From positions 7,119 to 71,118 of the forward strand of contig CADAFS010000003.1 in the NCBI GenBank assembly GCA_902787305.1: DNA of 64,000 nucleotides, read 5' to 3'. Both the position numbers and the translations under genes were made by a program. Below the pieces are notes generated by a model, which saw only the letters and a list, made by a program, of their open reading frames with translations, was not told the DNA's origin and made no database searches. This DNA comes from an uncultured Pseudomonadota bacterium (GTDB taxonomy: Bacteria > Pseudomonadota > Alphaproteobacteria > Rs-D84). Positions 3,627-55,635 of the stretch are shown in pieces. Positions within the stretch are counted from its first letter, which is position 1, and each line of letters starts with the position of its first letter.

Positions 3627-3657
3627 GTGGGGGTGGTGGTTGATGTAAGTGGGTAGT
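3627..3657 (+). repeat. Degenerate GTWAGT array
   Basis: GTGGGGGTGGTGGTTGATGTAAGTGGGTAGT. Confidence 0.5.
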
Positions 3658-3698
3658 ATATTCTGAAATGAATTTGTAATTGTAAAATTGTTCCAAAT

Positions 3699-3717
3699 AC
3701 CACTAACCACTTACACT
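3699..3717 (-). repeat. GTWAGT array (complement orientation) overlapping the murG stop
   Basis: ACCACTAACCACTTACACT on the + strand. Confidence 0.65.
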
Positions 3718-10635: not shown

Positions 10636-10718
10636 CACTTACACCAAGCCAGGGCAAAGCCCTGGCGCAGTCTCGGCACCGCACCCAGCGGTGACGGATA
10701 ATCACTTACACTAACACT
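10636..10718 (+). repeat. Double-hairpin REP-like element, copy A, with flanking CACTAAC/CACTTAC units
   Basis: CACCAAGCCAGGGCAAAGCCCTGGCGCAGTCTCGG + CACCGC-N-GCGGTG hairpin + GACGGATAA. Confidence 0.8.
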
Positions 10719-13524: not shown

Positions 13525-14193
13525 ATGGTAAAAACAAATACCCAGGCCGGGGCATCGGCAACGAAAAAATATGTTAAATTCGGTATCGTGGCGGTTGTTG
13601 TAATCGCGGTTGCGGTTATTGGATTGTTCGCGGTAAAATCTTTTTCAGGTAAAACGGTTAGTGCGGAATCCGCAATTGATGGCATATCGAGTGAGGCCGT
13701 ATCCGGTGGTGACCTGCGTATGGCGGTGATTCGTATGGATGCAATTCAATCGGATGCCAAGGCGTTGCAAGACCTGCGTAAACAACGCGAATCGTATGAA
13801 GAAAAATTGCGTAGTGAACTTGAAAAAGAACAAAAAGAATTAGAAAAAGAAAAAGAAGAAATTGAAAAATCCCAAGACGTCCTTTCCCAGGAAGCATTAC
13901 AACGTCGCGTTGTTGAATACCAAGGCAAGGTCACAAAATTGCAACGTGATTTGACAGAACGCGCACAATCGGTTGATGCCGCGTTCCAAAAGGCGTTGGT
14001 TGAAATCCAAGAAAAACACCTTGACCCGATTATCGAAGCGATAATTGCGAAAAAGAATTTGTCTTTGGTAATTGATGGTCGTTTTGCGCGGACGGGTGCA
14101 AATGTTGAAAACCTTGATATCACGGCGGATGTTATCAATGCATTGGATAAAAAGGTTTCAACCGTTAAAATGGACACACCGAAAGGATTCTAG
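13525..14193 (+). CDS. skp: OmpH/Skp-like periplasmic chaperone
   Basis: N-terminal anchor plus long Lys/Glu-rich coiled region typical of OmpH, located upstream of lpxD-fabZ. The stop TAG is the first unit of a GTWAGT array. Confidence 0.75.
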   Translation: MVKTNTQAGASATKKYVKFGIVAVVVIAVAVIGLFAVKSFSGKTVSAESAIDGISSEAVSGGDLRMAVIRMDAIQSDAKALQDLRKQRESYEEKLRSELEKEQKELEKEKEEIEKSQDVLSQEALQRRVVEYQGKVTKLQRDLTERAQSVDAAFQKALVEIQEKHLDPIIEAIIAKKNLSLVIDGRFARTGANVENLDITADVINALDKKVSTVKMDTPKGF

Positions 14194-14221
14194 TGGTTAG
14201 TGCAAGTAGTTAGTGTTAGTG
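14191..14221 (+). repeat. GTWAGT array starting at the skp stop codon
   Basis: TAGTGGTTAGTGCAAGTAGTTAGTGTTAGTG. Confidence 0.8.
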
Positions 14222-14245
14222 AACCGGCGATATCATCGCCGGTTT
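14222..14245 (+). terminator. Hairpin after skp
   Basis: AACCGGCGAT-ATC-ATCGCCGGTT followed by a T-rich tract. Confidence 0.65.
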
Positions 14246-14255
14246 ATATTTTTCA

Positions 14256-14284
14256 TTGCAAGTTAGTTTTTGTTTTACTATAAT
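14256..14284 (+). promoter_or_regulatory. Sigma70-type promoter of cassette copy 1 (TTGCAA-17 nt-TATAAT)
   Basis: Hexamers read directly. Same promoter in copy 3 and a near-identical one in copy 2. Confidence 0.7.
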
Positions 14285-14290
14285 CACACT

Positions 14291-14469
14291 TGCGATGGCG
14301 GGTTGCCGTTGCTGGGTCCTAGAAAACCCACCGAAGTAAAAAAAACTCCACCAGGTTGGAGGGTTGCGAATATATTGAATAAGCAACACTGTTTACTTCG
14401 CAGTTTTCTAGCCTCCAACCGTTTGTATTTTTGCAAATGGTTTTTTTATTTCATCAAAAAGGAAAAACA
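14291..14469 (+). promoter_or_regulatory. Structured 5' leader RNA of cassette copy 1 (candidate cis-regulatory RNA)
   Basis: Three stems with compensatory changes relative to copy 3. Ends in the terminator at 14417..14447 before the SD. Confidence 0.6.
14417..14447 (+). terminator. Intrinsic terminator inside the cassette leader (copy 1)
   Basis: AACCGTTTG...CAAATGGTT stem followed by T7, 22 nt before the ORF start. Confidence 0.7.
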
Positions 14470-14697
14470 ATGTTTGAAACAGTTATTACGGATAACCCAT
14501 TACCACAAACGGTGATAAAGGCGCTTTATCGTTATTATGAACAGCCACAAAATTCTATGACGGTTGGTGAAATGTATTTGTTGTTAAAACTGGTTCTATC
14601 GAAAATGGAAGATGAATTTGAAAAAATGGGATTCGATATAGAAAAAGAATTAGCCGATATACAAATACCCACCACCCCCACTAACACTAATCACTAA
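14470..14697 (+). CDS. Small conserved protein, cassette copy 1 (75 aa), unknown function
   Basis: Three paralogs in the window. 12 synonymous vs 3 non-synonymous differences against copy 3 over 61 codons (hand count). SD AAGGA upstream. The C-terminal TNTNH is encoded by the flanking array. Confidence 0.7.
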   Translation: MFETVITDNPLPQTVIKALYRYYEQPQNSMTVGEMYLLLKLVLSKMEDEFEKMGFDIEKELADIQIPTTPTNTNH

Positions 14698-14715
14698 CAC
14701 TTACACTAACCACTT
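14678..14715 (-). repeat. GTWAGT array (complement orientation) closing cassette copy 1
   Basis: CCACTAACACTAATCACTAACACTTACACTAACCACTT. Confidence 0.8.
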
Positions 14716-14763
14716 ATATCTAATTTCCCTTTTCTTTTTTAATTTTTTTATTATAATGCGGGC

Positions 14764-34348: not shown

Positions 34349-34437
34349 GTGTTATCCGTCTTTGTCCATCACCGCAAAGCGGTGCCGTGACTACATCGAA
34401 ACTGCGCCAGGGCTTTGCCCTGGCTTGGTGTTAGTGC
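34349..34437 (-). repeat. Double-hairpin REP-like element, copy B
   Basis: Reverse orientation of the consensus: TTATCCGTC...CACCGCAAAGCGGTG...GCGCCAGGGCTTTGCCCTGGCTTGGTG. Confidence 0.8.
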
Positions 34438-34473
34438 AGGTGTGTCCAATCGCGGTGCGGTGTGCCGCGATAG

Positions 34474-34500
34474 ACTAATCACTAACCACTCTTACACTAA
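34474..34500 (-). repeat. GTWAGT array (complement orientation) encoding the queH C-terminus
   Basis: ACTAATCACTAACCACTCTTACACTAA. Confidence 0.75.
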
Positions 34501-35011
34501 ATTCGCAACCGCAATAATTTTGACGATAGAAATCTGATTCGCGGTTGATTTGCTGTCGCAATTTTTCATCCCATTTAATCGGTAAATATGCGATTTCGCC
34601 CAATGTGGATTCGGCCGCCGTATCAACCTGGGCTTGGTCTTTGTGGCGCGACACACCAAACACAGACGCCACCGCATCATATCCGTTTTCGTGTGCAAAC
34701 TTTTTCGCGTATTCAAAACGATACGCAAAGCAAACACTGCACCGCGCGCCGCGTTCGGGCTCGGTCTCTAAGCCGCGCACCGCCGCGCGCCAAGCGTCAT
34801 GGTCATATTCACAGATTTTATATTTTACCCCCATGCGCTCACAGTATTTAACTTGCTCGTTCATACGCCGTGTATATTCAGATTCCGGCCAAATGTTTGG
34901 ATTAAAAAACAGAACAATAAAATCATCCACGCCCGCAATTTCACCGGATGCCAATTGCTTTATCGCGCCCGCGCTGCACGGCGCACAACAAGACATAAGA
35001 ACAAGTTTCAT
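34475..35011 (-). CDS. queH: Epoxyqueuosine reductase QueH (DUF208)
   Basis: CCAPCS, CSVCF and YCGCEFS cysteine motifs. The last 7 codons (SVRVVSD) and the stop are encoded by a GTWAGT array. Confidence 0.85.
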   Translation of the reverse strand: MKLVLMSCCAPCSAGAIKQLASGEIAGVDDFIVLFFNPNIWPESEYTRRMNEQVKYCERMGVKYKICEYDHDAWRAAVRGLETEPERGARCSVCFAYRFEYAKKFAHENGYDAVASVFGVSRHKDQAQVDTAAESTLGEIAYLPIKWDEKLRQQINRESDFYRQNYCGCEFSVRVVSD

Positions 35012-35516: not shown

Positions 35517-35537
35517 TCACTAACCACTAATCACTAT
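35517..35537 (-). repeat. Short GTWAGT array (complement orientation) containing the metG stop
   Basis: TCACTAACCACTAATCACTAT. Confidence 0.6.
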
Positions 35538-37146
35538 CTAACTCAATCCGGCTAAACAAATTTTCCGGTACGGTGAATTTTTCGCCGTTCGCAATTCTGT
35601 GTTCATATTGCGCCGGCCAAGACAAATCATGTTTGGTTTCGAATATATTTTGAATCCGCCCCGCCGCGTCCGGAATAATTGGTGCCGACACACGTGCAAA
35701 CAAATCAATCAATTGGAAGCATTCGTTTAACACCGCCGCCGCGCCCGCCATATCACCGTTCTTAACCAATGTCCATGGTTCTTTCGCGGTCATATATTCG
35801 TTCGCAATTCCATAAATATCGCGCAACGCAACAATAGATTTGCGAAATTCGCATGCGTCCAGTGCCGCGGTTAGTTCGGAAATTTTTTCGTTCACTTTGC
35901 CAACCAATTCCGCATCCGCCGCGCCCGCCGCCGGCACAGTATCACCAAAATTCTTGTTTGATAATTTGCACACACGCGACACAAAGTTGCCAAGCAAACC
36001 GTTCAAATCTTTATTCACAATTTCCGCAAACCGCGTCATTGTAAAGTCCGTATCGTCACTTTCAGGTGCGGACGCCAACAACGCATACCGCCAACAGTCC
36101 GATGGAGCAATGGAAAGTGCCGCATCAAGGAAAATTCCGTTGCCCGTGGACTTTGAAATTTTTGCACCATTAAAGTTCATAAAATTCAGTGCCTTTAATA
36201 CATCGACCGTTTTCCAATTATCATTGACGGCGATTTCTTGGGCCGGGAAAAATACGGCATGAAAGGACACGTTATCTTTGCCCATAAATTGCGTATAGTG
36301 GCATTCGGGATTTTTCCACCACGACGCCCAATCAGGATTCGCAATTTGTGAAATCGAAACATAACCCCACGGCGCATCAAACCATACATAGAAAACTTTA
36401 TTTTCATACCCTGGCTTATTTACCGGAATCCCCCATTTCAAATCGCGCGTAATTGGTGTGTCGTGCAACCCTTCGTCCAACCATTTGTTTGCAATTGCTG
36501 TTGCGGTTTTGGGCCAACCGATACGCGAATTTACCCATGCGCGCAGTTTATCTTGCACCGCACTCAACTTAAAATAAAGGTGTTTTGTTTCGCGCATTTC
36601 AACGGGCGAATCCGGGTCAATCGCGCTATGTGGGTTTATCAAATCCGCCGGGTCCAACGATGCGCCACACTTTTCACATTCGTTTCCATATGCGTGTTCA
36701 TATCCGCAACGTGGACAAGTGCCAATTACATATCGGTCGGCCAAGAATTTTTTTTCGTTCACCGAATATGGTTGCATTGATACTTTTTCTTCTATCATGC
36801 CCTGTTCTTCCAACCGATTGAACAATTCGTGAATCAATTTTTCTTGGGCATCCGTGTGCGTACGACCATAGTTATCAAAGGATAAATTAAAATCTTTTAC
36901 AACCTGTAAGTGTTTTGCGCGATATTTTTCAACATAATCTTCAACCGACATATTTTCGCGCGCCGCGCCAATTTCACTTGTGGTGCCGTGTTCGTCCGAC
37001 CCACCAATATAAAGGACATCACGGCCACACGCGCGACAAAAACGCGCATACACATCAGACGGCAGCAAGCACCCAATCAAATGCCCAATATGCAGGTTAT
37101 TATTCACATATGGTAATGCCGAAGTAATAAGATATTTTTTGCCCAT
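35527..37146 (-). CDS. metG: Methionyl-tRNA synthetase
   Basis: LPYVNNNLHIGH (HIGH), KISKSTGN (KMSKS), Zn knuckle CPRCG...CEKCG. Start at 37146 (SD AAGGA); a terminator hairpin occupies the upstream extension of the ORF. Confidence 0.93.
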   Translation of the reverse strand: MGKKYLITSALPYVNNNLHIGHLIGCLLPSDVYARFCRACGRDVLYIGGSDEHGTTSEIGAARENMSVEDYVEKYRAKHLQVVKDFNLSFDNYGRTHTDAQEKLIHELFNRLEEQGMIEEKVSMQPYSVNEKKFLADRYVIGTCPRCGYEHAYGNECEKCGASLDPADLINPHSAIDPDSPVEMRETKHLYFKLSAVQDKLRAWVNSRIGWPKTATAIANKWLDEGLHDTPITRDLKWGIPVNKPGYENKVFYVWFDAPWGYVSISQIANPDWASWWKNPECHYTQFMGKDNVSFHAVFFPAQEIAVNDNWKTVDVLKALNFMNFNGAKISKSTGNGIFLDAALSIAPSDCWRYALLASAPESDDTDFTMTRFAEIVNKDLNGLLGNFVSRVCKLSNKNFGDTVPAAGAADAELVGKVNEKISELTAALDACEFRKSIVALRDIYGIANEYMTAKEPWTLVKNGDMAGAAAVLNECFQLIDLFARVSAPIIPDAAGRIQNIFETKHDLSWPAQYEHRIANGEKFTVPENLFSRIELDSD

Positions 37147-37449: not shown

Positions 37450-37677
37450 TTAGTGTTCGGTTTCGTTTTGCGGAAAACCGTCAACCGTTCCCATCAATTC
37501 GCGTTCGATATCGATTCCCATCTTCTCCAATTCGTCTTCCATTTTCGACAGAATCAATTTCAACAACAAATACATTTCGCCGATTGTCATAGGATTTTGC
37601 GGCTGTTCATAGTAACGATACAGTGTTTTTATAACCGTTTGCGGTATTGGATTATTTGTGATTACCCGGCTAAACAT
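37450..37677 (-). CDS. Small conserved protein, cassette copy 2 (75 aa)
   Basis: MFSRVITNNPIPQTVIKTLYRYYEQPQNPMTIGEMYLLLKLILSKMEDELEKMGIDIEREL, paralog of 14470..14697 and 58089..58298. Confidence 0.65.
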   Translation of the reverse strand: MFSRVITNNPIPQTVIKTLYRYYEQPQNPMTIGEMYLLLKLILSKMEDELEKMGIDIERELMGTVDGFPQNETEH

Positions 37678-37730
37678 TATTTTCACCTTTGTTAAAAAAC
37701 ATTTGCGAACTCCAACCGGTTCCATTGCAA
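37678..37730 (-). promoter_or_regulatory. Truncated leader of cassette copy 2
   Basis: Retains GCAATGG, GGTTGGAGTTCGC and CAAATGTTTTTT segments; the central ~130 nt are absent. Confidence 0.4.
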
Positions 37731-37735
37731 ACATC

Positions 37736-37877: not shown

Positions 37878-39488
<1,611 letters not shown>

Positions 39489-41598: not shown

Positions 41599-41660
41599 TC
41601 CGTCTCCGCTTCGCTACGCCGAGACTGCGCCAGGGCTTTGCCCTGGCTTGGTGTAAGTGT
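41596..41660 (-). repeat. Double-hairpin REP-like element, copy D (short)
   Basis: GATCCGTCTCCGCTTCGCTACGCCGAGACTGCGCCAGGGCTTTGCCCTGGCTTGGTGTAAGTG. Begins at the accC stop codon. Confidence 0.75.
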
Positions 41661-41703
41661 GTCGCCGGCGGTTTTTCTAAATAACGAATCGTCTCAAAAA
41701 AAC

Positions 41704-41732
41704 TTGCAAATCGTCTTAAAAAATGATACGAT
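41704..41732 (+). promoter_or_regulatory. Putative fic promoter (TTGCAA-17-TACGAT) overlapped by AATCGTCT repeats
   Basis: Hexamers read directly. 10-mers at 41687, 41709 and (inverted) 41746. Confidence 0.45.
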
Positions 41733-41755
41733 TCTAGCACAAAAGTGAGACGATT

Positions 41756-42775
41756 ATGGAGAAACGCCAAAATCTTATACTGGAATTTATAAAAAAGCAC
41801 CCAAATACCAACAGTGGAGCAATTGTTGAATTTATATCACAACAAATGCCGGGAAAAAGTTCCCGACCGACCGTGTTACGTGATATTGATGCGCTGATTG
41901 CCGATGGTAAAGTCGTAAAATTTGGTTCCGCGCGTGCAACAACATATGCCGTGGTTATTGATATAGAAAATTATTTTGCCATTGATCCGGACAAACGGGT
42001 ATTAAAAACAGAGTATTTCAACTTTGATATTTGGGGCGAAATGCACGATTTGTTCACCGCAAAAGAATTATCCGAATTGGACAAAATTAACGATACATAC
42101 AGGAAAAATAAATCGGAATTATCCGCCACCGCATTAAAGAAAGAAATTGAACGCCTTACCATAGAATTTGCATGGAAATCATCTAAAATTGAAGGTAATA
42201 CCTATACTTTACTTGATACAGAACGTTTGATACGGGACAAAGAAGAAGCGACGGGAAAAAAGAAAGACGAAGCAATAATGATTTTGAATCACAAAGTTGC
42301 ATTGGACTTTATTTTTGCCAATCCCGATTTGTTTCAACATATTACCATTGCAAAAATAGAACATATCCACAAATTGCTGACCGATGGTTTAGAAATTAGC
42401 GGTGGCGTTCGTCAAAGACGGGTTGGTATAACCGGCACAAATTACAGACCAATCGATAACAGACAACAAATTATGGAAGCGTTGGAACGTCTGGTAAAAC
42501 TGATAAACGAATTGAAACATCCGCTGGAAAAAGCATTGGCGGCGGTTTTAATGATTTCATATATTCAACCGTTCGAAGATGGCAACAAACGTACTGCACG
42601 AACAATAGGTAATGCATTATTGTTGGCGTTTGACTATTGCCCATTGTCGTATCGCAGTGCCGATGAAATAGAATACAAGAAAGGTATGATATTATTCTAT
42701 GAACAGAATGATTTCGCATATTTCAAAAAAATATTCATCGACCAGTTCAAACAAGGAATTGAAAAGTACTTTTGA
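41756..42775 (+). CDS. Fic-family protein with N-terminal wHTH; Fic motif reads QPFEDGNKRTAR (His replaced by Gln)
   Basis: Fic core motif and inhibitory-type SSKIEG motif. Gln codon CAA at 42566..42568. Confidence 0.8.
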   Translation: MEKRQNLILEFIKKHPNTNSGAIVEFISQQMPGKSSRPTVLRDIDALIADGKVVKFGSARATTYAVVIDIENYFAIDPDKRVLKTEYFNFDIWGEMHDLFTAKELSELDKINDTYRKNKSELSATALKKEIERLTIEFAWKSSKIEGNTYTLLDTERLIRDKEEATGKKKDEAIMILNHKVALDFIFANPDLFQHITIAKIEHIHKLLTDGLEISGGVRQRRVGITGTNYRPIDNRQQIMEALERLVKLINELKHPLEKALAAVLMISYIQPFEDGNKRTARTIGNALLLAFDYCPLSYRSADEIEYKKGMILFYEQNDFAYFKKIFIDQFKQGIEKYF

Positions 42776-42862
42776 AAAAGAATTTACTAGACAAAAAGAT
42801 GCAGGTTTTTTGATAATAGTTATGTATCAAGATATTATTAGCACAAACAATGGGGATATAAA

Positions 42863-43267
42863 ATGAAATGGTGTTCAGACGTTGAAAAATTTAAAAGTTT
42901 AATAATGGATGTTGAAATTGCCTATGAAATACGTATGCATAGAGCTAACTGGGATAAAAAATACTATAAAACACCAGAAGAATGCCTAAATTTATTACAG
43001 GAGGCAGAAACATTAATAACAACTGATGAGAAGCATAAGCTTTCGTTCAAAGCAATTTTTCTATTAAGAAAATTTTATGAGTTAAAAGGACAGGTATTAA
43101 TTTTGTTGAAACAGCCCTACGAAGCTTATTCTGCACTAAAAGATGCTTTATACGTCTCTAGAAAAGATGTTTTAGAAAATAGACTTAGTGTATTATTTTA
43201 TACAATACTCGGTGGCTTGATTGGTTGGTATTGTGTTATATTACCAATGTTAAACAAAATATTTTAA
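42863..43267 (+). CDS. Hypothetical tail-anchored protein (134 aa)
   Basis: ORF in a strongly A+T-rich stretch with a C-terminal hydrophobic helix. Confidence 0.4.
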   Translation: MKWCSDVEKFKSLIMDVEIAYEIRMHRANWDKKYYKTPEECLNLLQEAETLITTDEKHKLSFKAIFLLRKFYELKGQVLILLKQPYEAYSALKDALYVSRKDVLENRLSVLFYTILGGLIGWYCVILPMLNKIF

Positions 43268-43365
43268 AAGCTACATATTTGGTTATACAAAAAATCGAAT
43301 GCCCTTAAAACACATGAACTAACTTAGATATTAAAAAAACAATAAAAACGCCTGTATTTGCGGGT

Positions 43366-43440
43366 GGTACTAGCCACTAACACCAAGCCGGGGCAAAGCC
43401 CTGGCGCAGTCTCGCCGTAGCCGCAGGCGAAGGCGGATTA
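43366..43440 (+). repeat. Double-hairpin REP-like element, copy E
   Basis: CACCAAGCCGGGGCAAAGCCCTGGCGCAGTCTCGCCGTAGCCGCAGGCGAAGGCGGATTA. The last 3 nt are the sspB stop (complement). Confidence 0.75.
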
Positions 43441-43902
43441 TTTCTTTCTCTTCCTAAACTCGTCCAATGACACAACGCGGCCGTCGTCGGGTATTGTGTC
43501 GCCTGTGCCGTCTAATGGTAATTCAATATCGTTATCCGGCGCGTTGCGTTCGGGGCCTTTGTGGAAAGATAACATAAAATCAACCGATGGATCTTTGAAT
43601 TCAACCAATGCCGAAAACGGAACGCGAATAAAGAACGGCCGCCCATCAAATGTCAGTTGCACGCCAAATTCTTTGTCCGATACATGCAAATTATTATACG
43701 AATACTGCAACACAATCGTCATAATGTCTGGATACCGTATACGCAGGAAATCCGGCAACACAACCCCCGCATCATGCGTGCGAAATGTTATAAAAAAATG
43801 CATCCCGTCCCCAAGGCCGTTTATCTGTGCATGAATCAATGCTTCGCGCACAACGGATTTTAACGCGTTATCTAACAATGATTGATAATCAATTCGTGCC
43901 AT
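43438..43902 (-). CDS. sspB: SspB-like ClpXP adaptor (alphaproteobacterial type)
   Basis: Eye alignment with Caulobacter SspB-alpha (HFFITF..., MTIVLQ..., DPSVDFMLSF). Confidence 0.75.
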   Translation of the reverse strand: MARIDYQSLLDNALKSVVREALIHAQINGLGDGMHFFITFRTHDAGVVLPDFLRIRYPDIMTIVLQYSYNNLHVSDKEFGVQLTFDGRPFFIRVPFSALVEFKDPSVDFMLSFHKGPERNAPDNDIELPLDGTGDTIPDDGRVVSLDEFRKRKK

Positions 43903-55580: not shown

Positions 55581-55610
55581 GCACTAACACTAATCACTTG
55601 CACTAACCAC
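55581..55610 (-). repeat. GTWAGT array (complement orientation) between two terminator hairpins
   Basis: CACTAACACTAATCACTTGCACTAACCACT. Confidence 0.8.
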
Positions 55611-55635
55611 TAAAAAACGCCCAAACGGGCGTTTT
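55611..55635. terminator. Bidirectional terminator between the PNPOx-like gene and pal
   Basis: AAAAAACGCCC-AAAC-GGGCGTTTTT. Confidence 0.8.

Follow-up and report, generated by a model that had tools for sequence, protein, structure and literature searches.

A structured leader RNA with an intrinsic terminator upstream of an orphan small-protein gene in Candidatus Enterousia-like bacteria: a candidate two-state attenuator with an sRNA-Xcc1-like core

Introduction

Three times within a 64,000-nucleotide stretch of DNA from an uncultured alphaproteobacterium (GenBank assembly GCA_902787305.1, contig CADAFS010000003.1, positions 7,119 to 71,118; hereafter the window), a promoter and a leader are found in front of a small open reading frame (ORF). 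What is this leader, and what does it do for the gene behind it? The source organism is Candidatus Enterousia-like and belongs to the order Rs-D84; Enterousia is a member of this order, in which genomes are mostly smaller than 1 Mb (PMC12306168). A first-pass annotation, made from the letters of the window, had described the three cassettes as promoter, structured leader with terminator, and small ORF between inverted arrays of GTWAGT units, and had likened them to type III toxin-antitoxin loci. Here we propose, with about even confidence, that the leader is a cis-acting two-state transcription attenuator placed before a small orphan gene, and that its core resembles the small RNA (sRNA) family sRNA-Xcc1.

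Results

Anatomy of the cassettes

The copies are named after their positions in the window (14-kb, 37-kb and 58-kb). The full cassette, present in the 14-kb and 58-kb copies, is predicted to be one transcription unit consisting of a strong promoter, a cis-acting leader RNA of ~160 nt, an intrinsic terminator, a Shine-Dalgarno sequence and the small ORF. Its parts are as follows.

14256-14284, plus strand: promoter of the 14-kb copy, TTGCAA-17-TATAAT, sigma-70-type, 10/12 match
14292-14353, plus strand: 5' leader domain of the 14-kb copy, with hairpin H1 and segments b, c and e
14292-14312, plus strand: hairpin H1, covarying across 18 leaders
14319-14327, plus strand: segment b, CUAGAAAAC; its helix b:b' covaries across 18 leaders
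14332-14340, plus strand: segment c, CGAAGUAAA; its helix c:c' covaries across 18 leaders
14346-14350, plus strand: segment e, CUCCA
14354-14420, plus strand: RNA core of the 14-kb copy, 74.7 bits with covariance model R1 (E-value 2e-15)
14354-14361 with 14413-14420, plus strand: helix P1, GGUUGGAG with CUCCAACC
14363-14367 with 14383-14387, plus strand: stem of P2, with loop GAAUAUAUUGAAUAA at 14368-14382
14389-14403, plus strand: hairpin P3, which includes c' (14392-14400)
14403-14411, plus strand: segment b'
14417-14449, plus strand: intrinsic terminator of the 14-kb copy, an 11-bp stem (14417-14442) plus U7
14470-14697, plus strand: ORF of the 14-kb copy, a helical orphan protein of 75 amino acids; Shine-Dalgarno AGGA at 14460-14463
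58523-58495, minus strand: promoter of the 58-kb copy, TTGCAA-17-TATAAT, sigma-70-type, 10/12 match
58325-58488, minus strand: full leader RNA of the 58-kb copy (5' domain, core and terminator), R1 89.9 bits
58347-58419, minus strand: RNA core of the 58-kb copy
58350-58325, minus strand: terminator of the 58-kb copy, an 11-bp stem followed by a U-run
58089-58298, minus strand: ORF of the 58-kb copy, 69 amino acids
37764-37736, minus strand: promoter of the 37-kb copy, TTGTAA-17-TATAAT, sigma-70-type, 10/12 match
37678-37732, minus strand: remnant leader of the 37-kb copy, with an internal deletion and no RNA core
37450-37677, minus strand: ORF of the 37-kb copy, 75 amino acids

The ORFs are located exactly at the coordinates and on the strands of the first-pass annotation, which was also right in placing a promoter upstream of each copy. 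Loci orthologous to the 14-kb copy keep its sigma-70-type promoter. No second promoter was found between terminator and ORF in the 14-kb and 58-kb copies, and the A-rich Shine-Dalgarno region is left unpaired in the predicted folds of both. The spacing from terminator to start codon is short and conserved, with the ATG ~25 nt after the U-run. The distance from the -10 box to the ATG is ~185 nt in these two copies and ~55 nt in the 37-kb copy.

Covariation of the leader RNA

We collected 18 full leaders, including relatives whose protein is 45-50% identical and whose genomic contexts are unrelated. All 18 share the same order of parts: H1, a small hairpin with b as its loop, c, an optional variable hairpin and a copy of CUCCAAC (e) in the 5' part, followed by GGUUGGAG, P2, P3, the U-rich b', CUCCAACC and the terminator in the 3' part. 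The core is a 72-nt three-way junction in which the P2 loop GAAUAUAUUGAAUAAG is near-invariant and P3 is a variable hairpin; across the 18 leaders, P2 combines a freely covarying 5-bp stem with the loop GAAUAUAUUGAAUAA.

H1, P1, P2, P3 and the terminator were independently recovered by RNAalifold, with 16 compensated pairs. The b:b' helix (8-10 bp) was found in 18/18 leaders in at least 10 different sequences, and the c:c' helix (6-12 bp, c with the P3 loop) was likewise present in every leader, in at least 13 different sequences. In a structural alignment of the 18 leaders (A6), 98.3% of cells were paired, a value inflated by the placement of c:c' (see Discussion), and 25 of the 47 pairs had changed on both sides; none of 500 shuffles was as good, and slid controls were 33-52% paired. 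Compensatory changes also occur in the terminator stem (in leaders L026b and L031; loci collected for comparison carry L numbers), yet its start always lies inside CUCCAACC. Both GGUUGGAG and CUCCAACC are invariant across the 18 Rs-D84 leaders and the adjacent helices vary freely, as expected of segments with several alternative partners. Because MAFFT misaligned the variable 5' region of the raw leaders, N-padded manual alignments were used instead. A cross-pairing matrix for c:c' was noisy, since other short complementarities interfere, and was replaced by the structural alignment.

Judged by this covariation, and by fold z-scores against shuffled sequence of -4.0 (14-kb) and -5.9 (58-kb), the leader is a genuine folded RNA that ends in a terminator, in agreement with the first-pass annotation for these two copies. 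The extension of that claim to all copies did not hold for the 37-kb copy, whose remnant of 55 nt has a z-score of 0.18, no significant structure and no terminator call. Its deletion joins GCAAUGG (GCAATGG in DNA) to AACCG and is shared by orthologues in several genomes; two loci from more distant genomes, L015 and L016 (1296-1500), retain the full leader at the same place. That the RNA is not tandemly repeated, as had been noted before, was borne out by Tandem Repeats Finder, which returned nothing in 14290-14450 and 58320-58490.

Two conserved folds and a model of attenuation

Helices c:c' and P3 are mutually exclusive, and in several leaders (L015, L027) c:c' takes the 3' strand of P3 as well. 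Together, b:b' and c:c' make an interrupted helix of ~20 bp around e:GGUUGGAG and P2, in which CUCCAACC stays free. This long-helix fold, with the full 11-bp terminator, is the minimum-free-energy structure of the 58-kb leader and the centroid structure of the 14-kb leader. In addition, the sequence AACC forms both the last four bases of the P1 3' strand and the first four of the terminator stem, an overlap seen in 18/18 leaders.

These features suggest how the leader might act. Because AACC is common to the P1 3' strand and the terminator stem, folding of the P1/P2/P3 core should weaken the terminator, and RNA polymerase would then read into the ORF. The lineage-specific 5' domain would compete with the core, c pairing with the P3 loop and b with the strand that joins P3 to P1, and the upstream CUCCAAC copy (e) would pair with GGUUGGAG in this competing fold. 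The competing helix would dissolve P1 and P3 and free CUCCAACC, so that the full terminator could form; this OFF state is predicted to be the ground state. Recognition of the invariant loop or of the junction by some factor (a protein, a small ligand, the ribosome or RNA polymerase) would tip the balance. In the 37-kb copy, from which RNA and terminator are gone, expression is probably constitutive. Which fold reads through, the existence of a trigger and the role of the protein are inferred parts of this attenuator model.

The orphan protein

The proteins of the three window copies show identities of 86% and 69%. Between the 14-kb and 58-kb ORFs there are 12.5 synonymous and 3.5 non-synonymous differences, and the ratio of non-synonymous to synonymous substitution rates (dN/dS) is 0.05; the 14-kb and 37-kb ORFs differ at 24 synonymous and 15 non-synonymous sites (dN/dS 0.06), and orthologue pairs gave 0.00-0.07. 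The earlier count of 12 and 3 for "copies 1 and 3" is reproduced if copies are numbered by position (1 being the 14-kb and 3 the 58-kb copy), and the accompanying statement that copies 1 and 3 have a downstream array is consistent with the same numbering. Purifying selection, which had been claimed from that count, is thus confirmed at dN/dS 0.05-0.06 between window copies. Given these low ratios, the ORF can be regarded as a real translated gene under strong constraint.

The protein (69-75 amino acids in the window) is acidic and all-helical; two AlphaFold models (pLDDT 62 and 69) consist of a helix-loop-helix and a short third helix. Its family comprises 14 representative clusters among 1.84 billion, with 81 proteins, all of 62-76 amino acids; longer entries are due to mis-called starts that extend into the leader. 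Relatives occur only in Candidatus Enterousia and in unnamed Alphaproteobacteria genome bins from rumen and gut. The C-terminal His is nearly invariant, and this His together with the stop codon (CAC-TAA) is the first unit of a downstream CACTAAC array.

The protein had been reported as not assignable to any family, and our searches agree: nothing significant was found in Pfam, NCBIfam, PHROGs or PADLOC, a sequence-profile search of PDB was empty, and three Foldseek searches (PDB, viral proteins) gave no significant match. A search for the protein in viral contigs did not find it. The small acidic phage proteins encoded downstream of the RNA core (see below) were considered as relatives and proved unrelated.

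The RNA core beyond the small gene

Occurrence of the core was assessed with R1, a 72-position covariance model. Besides weak echoes on the opposite strand, R1 found two copies in the window (14354-14420 and 58347-58419). In ~174 kb of related loci it found, again besides opposite-strand echoes, one extra copy, in a second leader of L026 that precedes a gene of the XRE-type helix-turn-helix (HTH) family. Scans of IMG/VR with loop-based patterns followed by the R1 filter detected more than 20 further core copies in viral contigs. P1, P2 and P3 covary in these copies as well (91% paired; as many as 4-5 pair types in a column; 0/500 shuffles as good). For P1, 19 distinct viral copies show as many as 4 pair types in a column; invariance of the loop among viral copies is partly imposed by the loop-based search pattern.

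In most viral copies, an ORF on the same strand starts 11-60 nt downstream of the core. Among the genes in this position are those for AntA, Phage_pRha (Rha), Bro-N (three loci), a cold-shock-domain protein (CSD) and several very acidic small proteins. A few copies (e.g., L042, L055) have a -10-like box just upstream, as read by eye, which would place the RNA core at the 5' end of the transcript. One viral contig carries two tandem core copies (L066 8415-8581, equivalent to L069 310-476), the second with the loop variant GGAUAUGUUGAAGAAG and followed by an ORF of 55 amino acids.

Two Rs-D84-like contigs have other genes behind the leader: an ATP-binding cassette (ABC) exporter in L033, identified by sequence motifs, and in L032 an ORF of 316 amino acids that is probably secreted (signal-peptide-like N-terminus, by eye) and had no family hit. 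In these IMG/VR contigs (L032 9956-11828, L033 6257-8349), the full leader adjoins ORFs resembling a phospholipase-D-type nuclease (HKIMHNKYAIFDG) and a DNA methyltransferase (NPPF), both recognised by sequence motifs. The two contigs may be bacterial islands and not phages. Since the same leader precedes unrelated genes, it would appear to act as a 5' control element and not as the partner of one protein.

BLASTN of phage-type leaders against GenBank phages gave no match, a full-text literature search for the loop sequence returned nothing, and a look through the literature turned up no description of such an RNA in antirepressor leaders.

Relation to sRNA-Xcc1 and other known RNAs

At gathering scores, Rfam 15 recognised two tRNAs in the window and one tRNA in 13 viral loci, and nothing else. 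In E-value mode, the sole recurrent match was sRNA-Xcc1 (RF02221), with 29.4, 31.3, 31.3 and 34.1 bits against a gathering score of 53: 29.4 bits at the 14-kb copy and 31-34 bits at L026b, L036 and L042. The 58-kb copy, at the gathering score, and most viral copies had no sRNA-Xcc1 match. The alignments span model positions 1-87, that is, end to end.

Shared features are a closing helix of ~9 bp, a first hairpin with the loop AAUA...UAA, a second hairpin and a U-rich joining strand, as well as the habit of occurring in several copies per genome just upstream of small mobile-element genes. In integron cassettes of Xanthomonas, sRNA-Xcc1 precedes the toxin gene symE (bioRxiv 10.1101/2025.06.18.660453), and in APSE phages it is located in front of an ORF6N gene (bioRxiv 10.1101/2020.03.17.996009). 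Xylella has 7 copies (PMC12189769); the RNA was reported as a discrete transcript of ~90 nt, with several of the copies in a Xylella genome being transcribed (PMC2996969; PMC12189769). However, RF02221 has neither the loop GAAUAUAUUGAAUAAG nor the competing 5' domain nor the terminator that overlaps P1, and its hosts are Gammaproteobacteria (integron cassettes, prophages, genomic islands), whereas the RNA described here occurs in Rs-D84 Alphaproteobacteria and diverse viral contigs. Because architecture and genomic habit match but the sequence model does not, we regard the core as a divergent, uncurated relative or analogue of sRNA-Xcc1 and not as a member of this family.

The Rfam models for C4 and isrK had no match at the leader sites. 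The complement of the P2 loop was absent near ORF starts; it had 10 matches in the window against 5.2 expected, two of which are the loops' own opposite strands.

GTWAGT arrays and a GC-rich repeat

The pattern GTWAGT(G) has 18 matches in the window compared with 0.3 expected. Its 6- or 7-nt units form 12-13 arrays, which usually start at or next to a stop codon, beside terminators. A unit reads TAG on one strand and TAA on the opposite one, and three 7-nt units therefore block all six reading frames. The arrays and the GC-rich repeat found with them are as follows.

14191-14221, plus strand: GTWAGT(G) array after the skp stop codon, a predicted genome-wide repeat outside the cassette
14679-14717, minus strand: inverse array (CACTAAC units), the first unit being the final His codon and TAA stop of the 14-kb ORF
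58548-58588, minus strand: array upstream of the 58-kb copy
~58010-58085 and 57990-58008: GC-rich element, resembling repetitive extragenic palindromes (REP) or miniature inverted-repeat transposable elements (MITE), and array, both downstream of the 58-kb ORF
921-950, 3645-3714 (inverted pair), 10703-10715, 34473-34501, 35518-35538, 43368-43381, 55582-55614: other GTWAGT(G) arrays
10649-10700, 34350-34435, 37890-37965, 41600-41660, 43380-43450, 58010-58085: six copies of the GC-rich repeat, 80-95 nt

Five of the six cassette sides are flanked by arrays, and 7-8 further arrays are found at intergenic sites without a cassette. The number of units varies between orthologous loci in a microsatellite-like manner, and the distant cassettes L027 and L029 have no evident arrays, by eye, in ~330 nt upstream and ~180 nt downstream. 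The arrays reported as inverted brackets of the cassettes are therefore real and are indeed inverted at the 14-kb and 58-kb copies, but their proposed role as terminal inverted repeats is not supported by the cassette-free sites or by L027 and L029. Because they are found at many sites without a cassette, the arrays are best interpreted as genome-wide intergenic repeats and not as cassette ends.

The GC-rich repeat consists of a hairpin, GCCAGGGC-AAA-GCCCTGGC, a second hairpin and an end of the form ...GGATAA, and it is always located within or next to short-unit arrays. It looks REP- or MITE-like, since it is present or absent among orthologous loci (L001, L020). Arrays and GC-rich element share with REP, bacterial interspersed mosaic elements (BIME) and MITE-like repeats that they are short, confined to intergenic regions, next to terminators and variable between strains; what sets the GTWAGT(G) unit apart from such repeats is that it reads as a stop codon on either strand and that in many cases a gene takes its stop codon from it.

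Synteny and history of the copies

All three window copies have positional orthologues in other genomes. With X denoting the small-protein cassette, skp-X-lpxD is also found in L001, L019 and L020, xseB-X-infC in L002-L005 and L018 (with the protein down to 67% identical), and mreB-X-tRNA-Val in L011-L016, L022 and L023. This synteny indicates that the three copies are old paralogs and speaks against recent mobility.

Occupied cassette sites nevertheless differ among related genomes, with presence or absence at some slots. Downstream of accC, the small-protein cassette is found in L008, L024 and L027, and the window has a Fic/DOC gene and an ORF of 134 amino acids in this slot; the latter ORF had no family match.

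41620-43414: accC-downstream segment, 1.7 kb, between two inverted copies of the GC-rich repeat
41756-42775: Fic/DOC-family gene inside this segment

Paralogs are mosaic. Comparison of L008 and L010 with window positions 14209-14652 and 58003-58587 revealed that L008 combines an ORF that shares 96.5% identity with the 58-kb copy and a leader nearer to that of the 14-kb copy. L010, a locus which the window does not have, carries almost the same leader as the 58-kb copy. Such mosaics suggest that copies have recombined or undergone gene conversion.

An indel of ~450 bp distinguishes two close strains (L026 3200-3700, compared with L025); it contains a promoter, the same leader RNA, an XRE-type HTH gene of 75 amino acids, a terminator and a CACTAAC array.

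Presence or absence of cassettes at some slots, together with an RNA core of a mobile-element-associated class, indicates that the module is portable over long times, but not via the arrays.

Discussion

The leader described here resembles terminator-type riboswitches and attenuators in having a promoter-proximal covarying domain, a closing helix that overlaps an intrinsic terminator, two conserved folds that are predicted to exclude each other and a gene start ~25 nt past the U-run. Several points weigh against the attenuator model. The register of c:c' in alignment A6 was chosen per sequence, which inflates the percentage of paired cells but not the variety of compensated sequences. The overlap between P1 and the terminator is 4 nt, so the antitermination effect can only be inferred. 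The genes under control share neither a pathway nor a function, an unusual situation for a metabolite riboswitch, and the core also occurs without a terminator in phage 5' untranslated regions. Indeed, most viral core copies have neither the 5' domain nor the terminator, and the primary activity of the core may therefore be something other than attenuation. Termination would also yield a stable RNA of ~160 nt, which could itself be a functional product.

This last point leads to a reading in which the leader is a stand-alone trans-acting sRNA, like c4 of phage P1 or CI of satellite P4, pairing for example via GGUUGGAG/CUCCAACC with the nascent leaders of all copies, and in which the ORF is expressed by leakage. 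P1 c4 and P4 CI act in the context of antirepressor genes, and in P4 the segment seqB is complementary to both seqA and seqC. Likewise, viral copies of the core lie upstream of antirepressor genes, and the RNA of c4 (P1/P7, RF01695) and P4 CI is, as proposed here, a structured RNA encoded in the leader of the transcript that it controls, with a central segment complementary to both sides: GGUUGGAG can pair with one upstream and one downstream segment. Moreover, GGUUGGAG/CUCCAACC are identical in all copies and b:b' and c:c' are copy-specific. The RNA is also equipped with a promoter of its own and a U-tailed terminator, and the nearest Rfam family, sRNA-Xcc1, was reported as a discrete transcript of ~90 nt (PMC2996969; PMC12189769). 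However, the window shows no enrichment of sequences complementary to the invariant loop (10 vs 5.2 expected), the tight, conserved spacing from terminator to start codon and the lack of a separate ORF promoter are not what this reading predicts, and the strong purifying selection on the ORF implies that it is expressed. We consider such an sRNA possible but rather doubtful.

Two further readings start from mobile elements. The cassette might be an RNA-protein addiction or conflict module of mobile-element origin, toxin-antitoxin-like or anti-defence, with the RNA restraining a small protein that is harmful, or useful only under some conditions. Its order of promoter, non-coding RNA, terminator and protein gene is that of type III loci (ToxIN, CptIN, TenpIN), there are several copies per genome, the slot downstream of accC holds either the cassette or the Fic/DOC module, depending on the genome, and sRNA-Xcc1 precedes symE in Xanthomonas (bioRxiv 10.1101/2025.06.18.660453). 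But the type III resemblance drawn in the first-pass annotation does not go beyond the order of parts: the RNA is a single complex fold without tandem repeats, and the protein is a helical hairpin of ~70 amino acids (69-75, acidic, all-helical) in place of an endoribonuclease of ~170 amino acids, without a ToxN, AbiE or PADLOC match. In addition, the same RNA precedes unrelated genes, among them the ABC exporter and the probably secreted 316-residue ORF, the protein was not found in viral contigs, and the cassette is kept at syntenic sites in genomes below 1 Mb with dN/dS of ~0.05; an addiction module is thus improbable. A non-autonomous mobile element, using the inverted GTWAGT arrays as terminal inverted repeats and a recombinase encoded elsewhere, would explain the inverted arrays at the 14-kb and 58-kb copies, the variable occupancy of some slots, the mosaic paralogs and the ~450-bp indel of leader, HTH gene and array between L025 and L026. 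It is nonetheless very hard to reconcile with arrays at 7-8 cassette-free intergenic sites, including the inverted pair at 3645-3714, with microsatellite-like variation of unit number between orthologous loci, with the lack of evident arrays in ~330 nt upstream and ~180 nt downstream of L027 and L029, with three copies that are syntenic across species whose proteins are only 67% identical, and with the fact that no target-site duplication is evident. We therefore regard it as most unlikely.

The attenuator model can be placed in a wider, more tentative picture, which we rate as somewhat short of probable: the core with loop GAAUAUAUUGAAUAAG would represent a new and widespread class of functional RNAs that head the early and antirepressor transcripts of many phages and bind a conserved host machine (RNA polymerase or the ribosome), and a gut alphaproteobacterium with a reduced genome would have domesticated it by adding a self-complementary 5' domain and a terminator, turning it into a switch for a lineage-specific small protein (3-5 copies).

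In this study, we report a well-supported RNA with strong covariation that scores below every Rfam 15 gathering score and may be linked to the poorly understood sRNA-Xcc1 family. Antirepressor genes decide between lysogeny and lysis, and the core lies directly upstream of such genes in diverse viral contigs. Since its 16-nt loop is conserved across unrelated phages, the RNA points to a shared host target. Our analysis also carries a caution that genome-wide intergenic repeats can pass for transposon ends. In Candidatus Enterousia, an uncultured lineage with genomes below 1 Mb, the same RNA gained a competing domain and a terminator, and the fact that several copies of the cassette have been kept despite genome reduction suggests that the orphan small protein has an important function.

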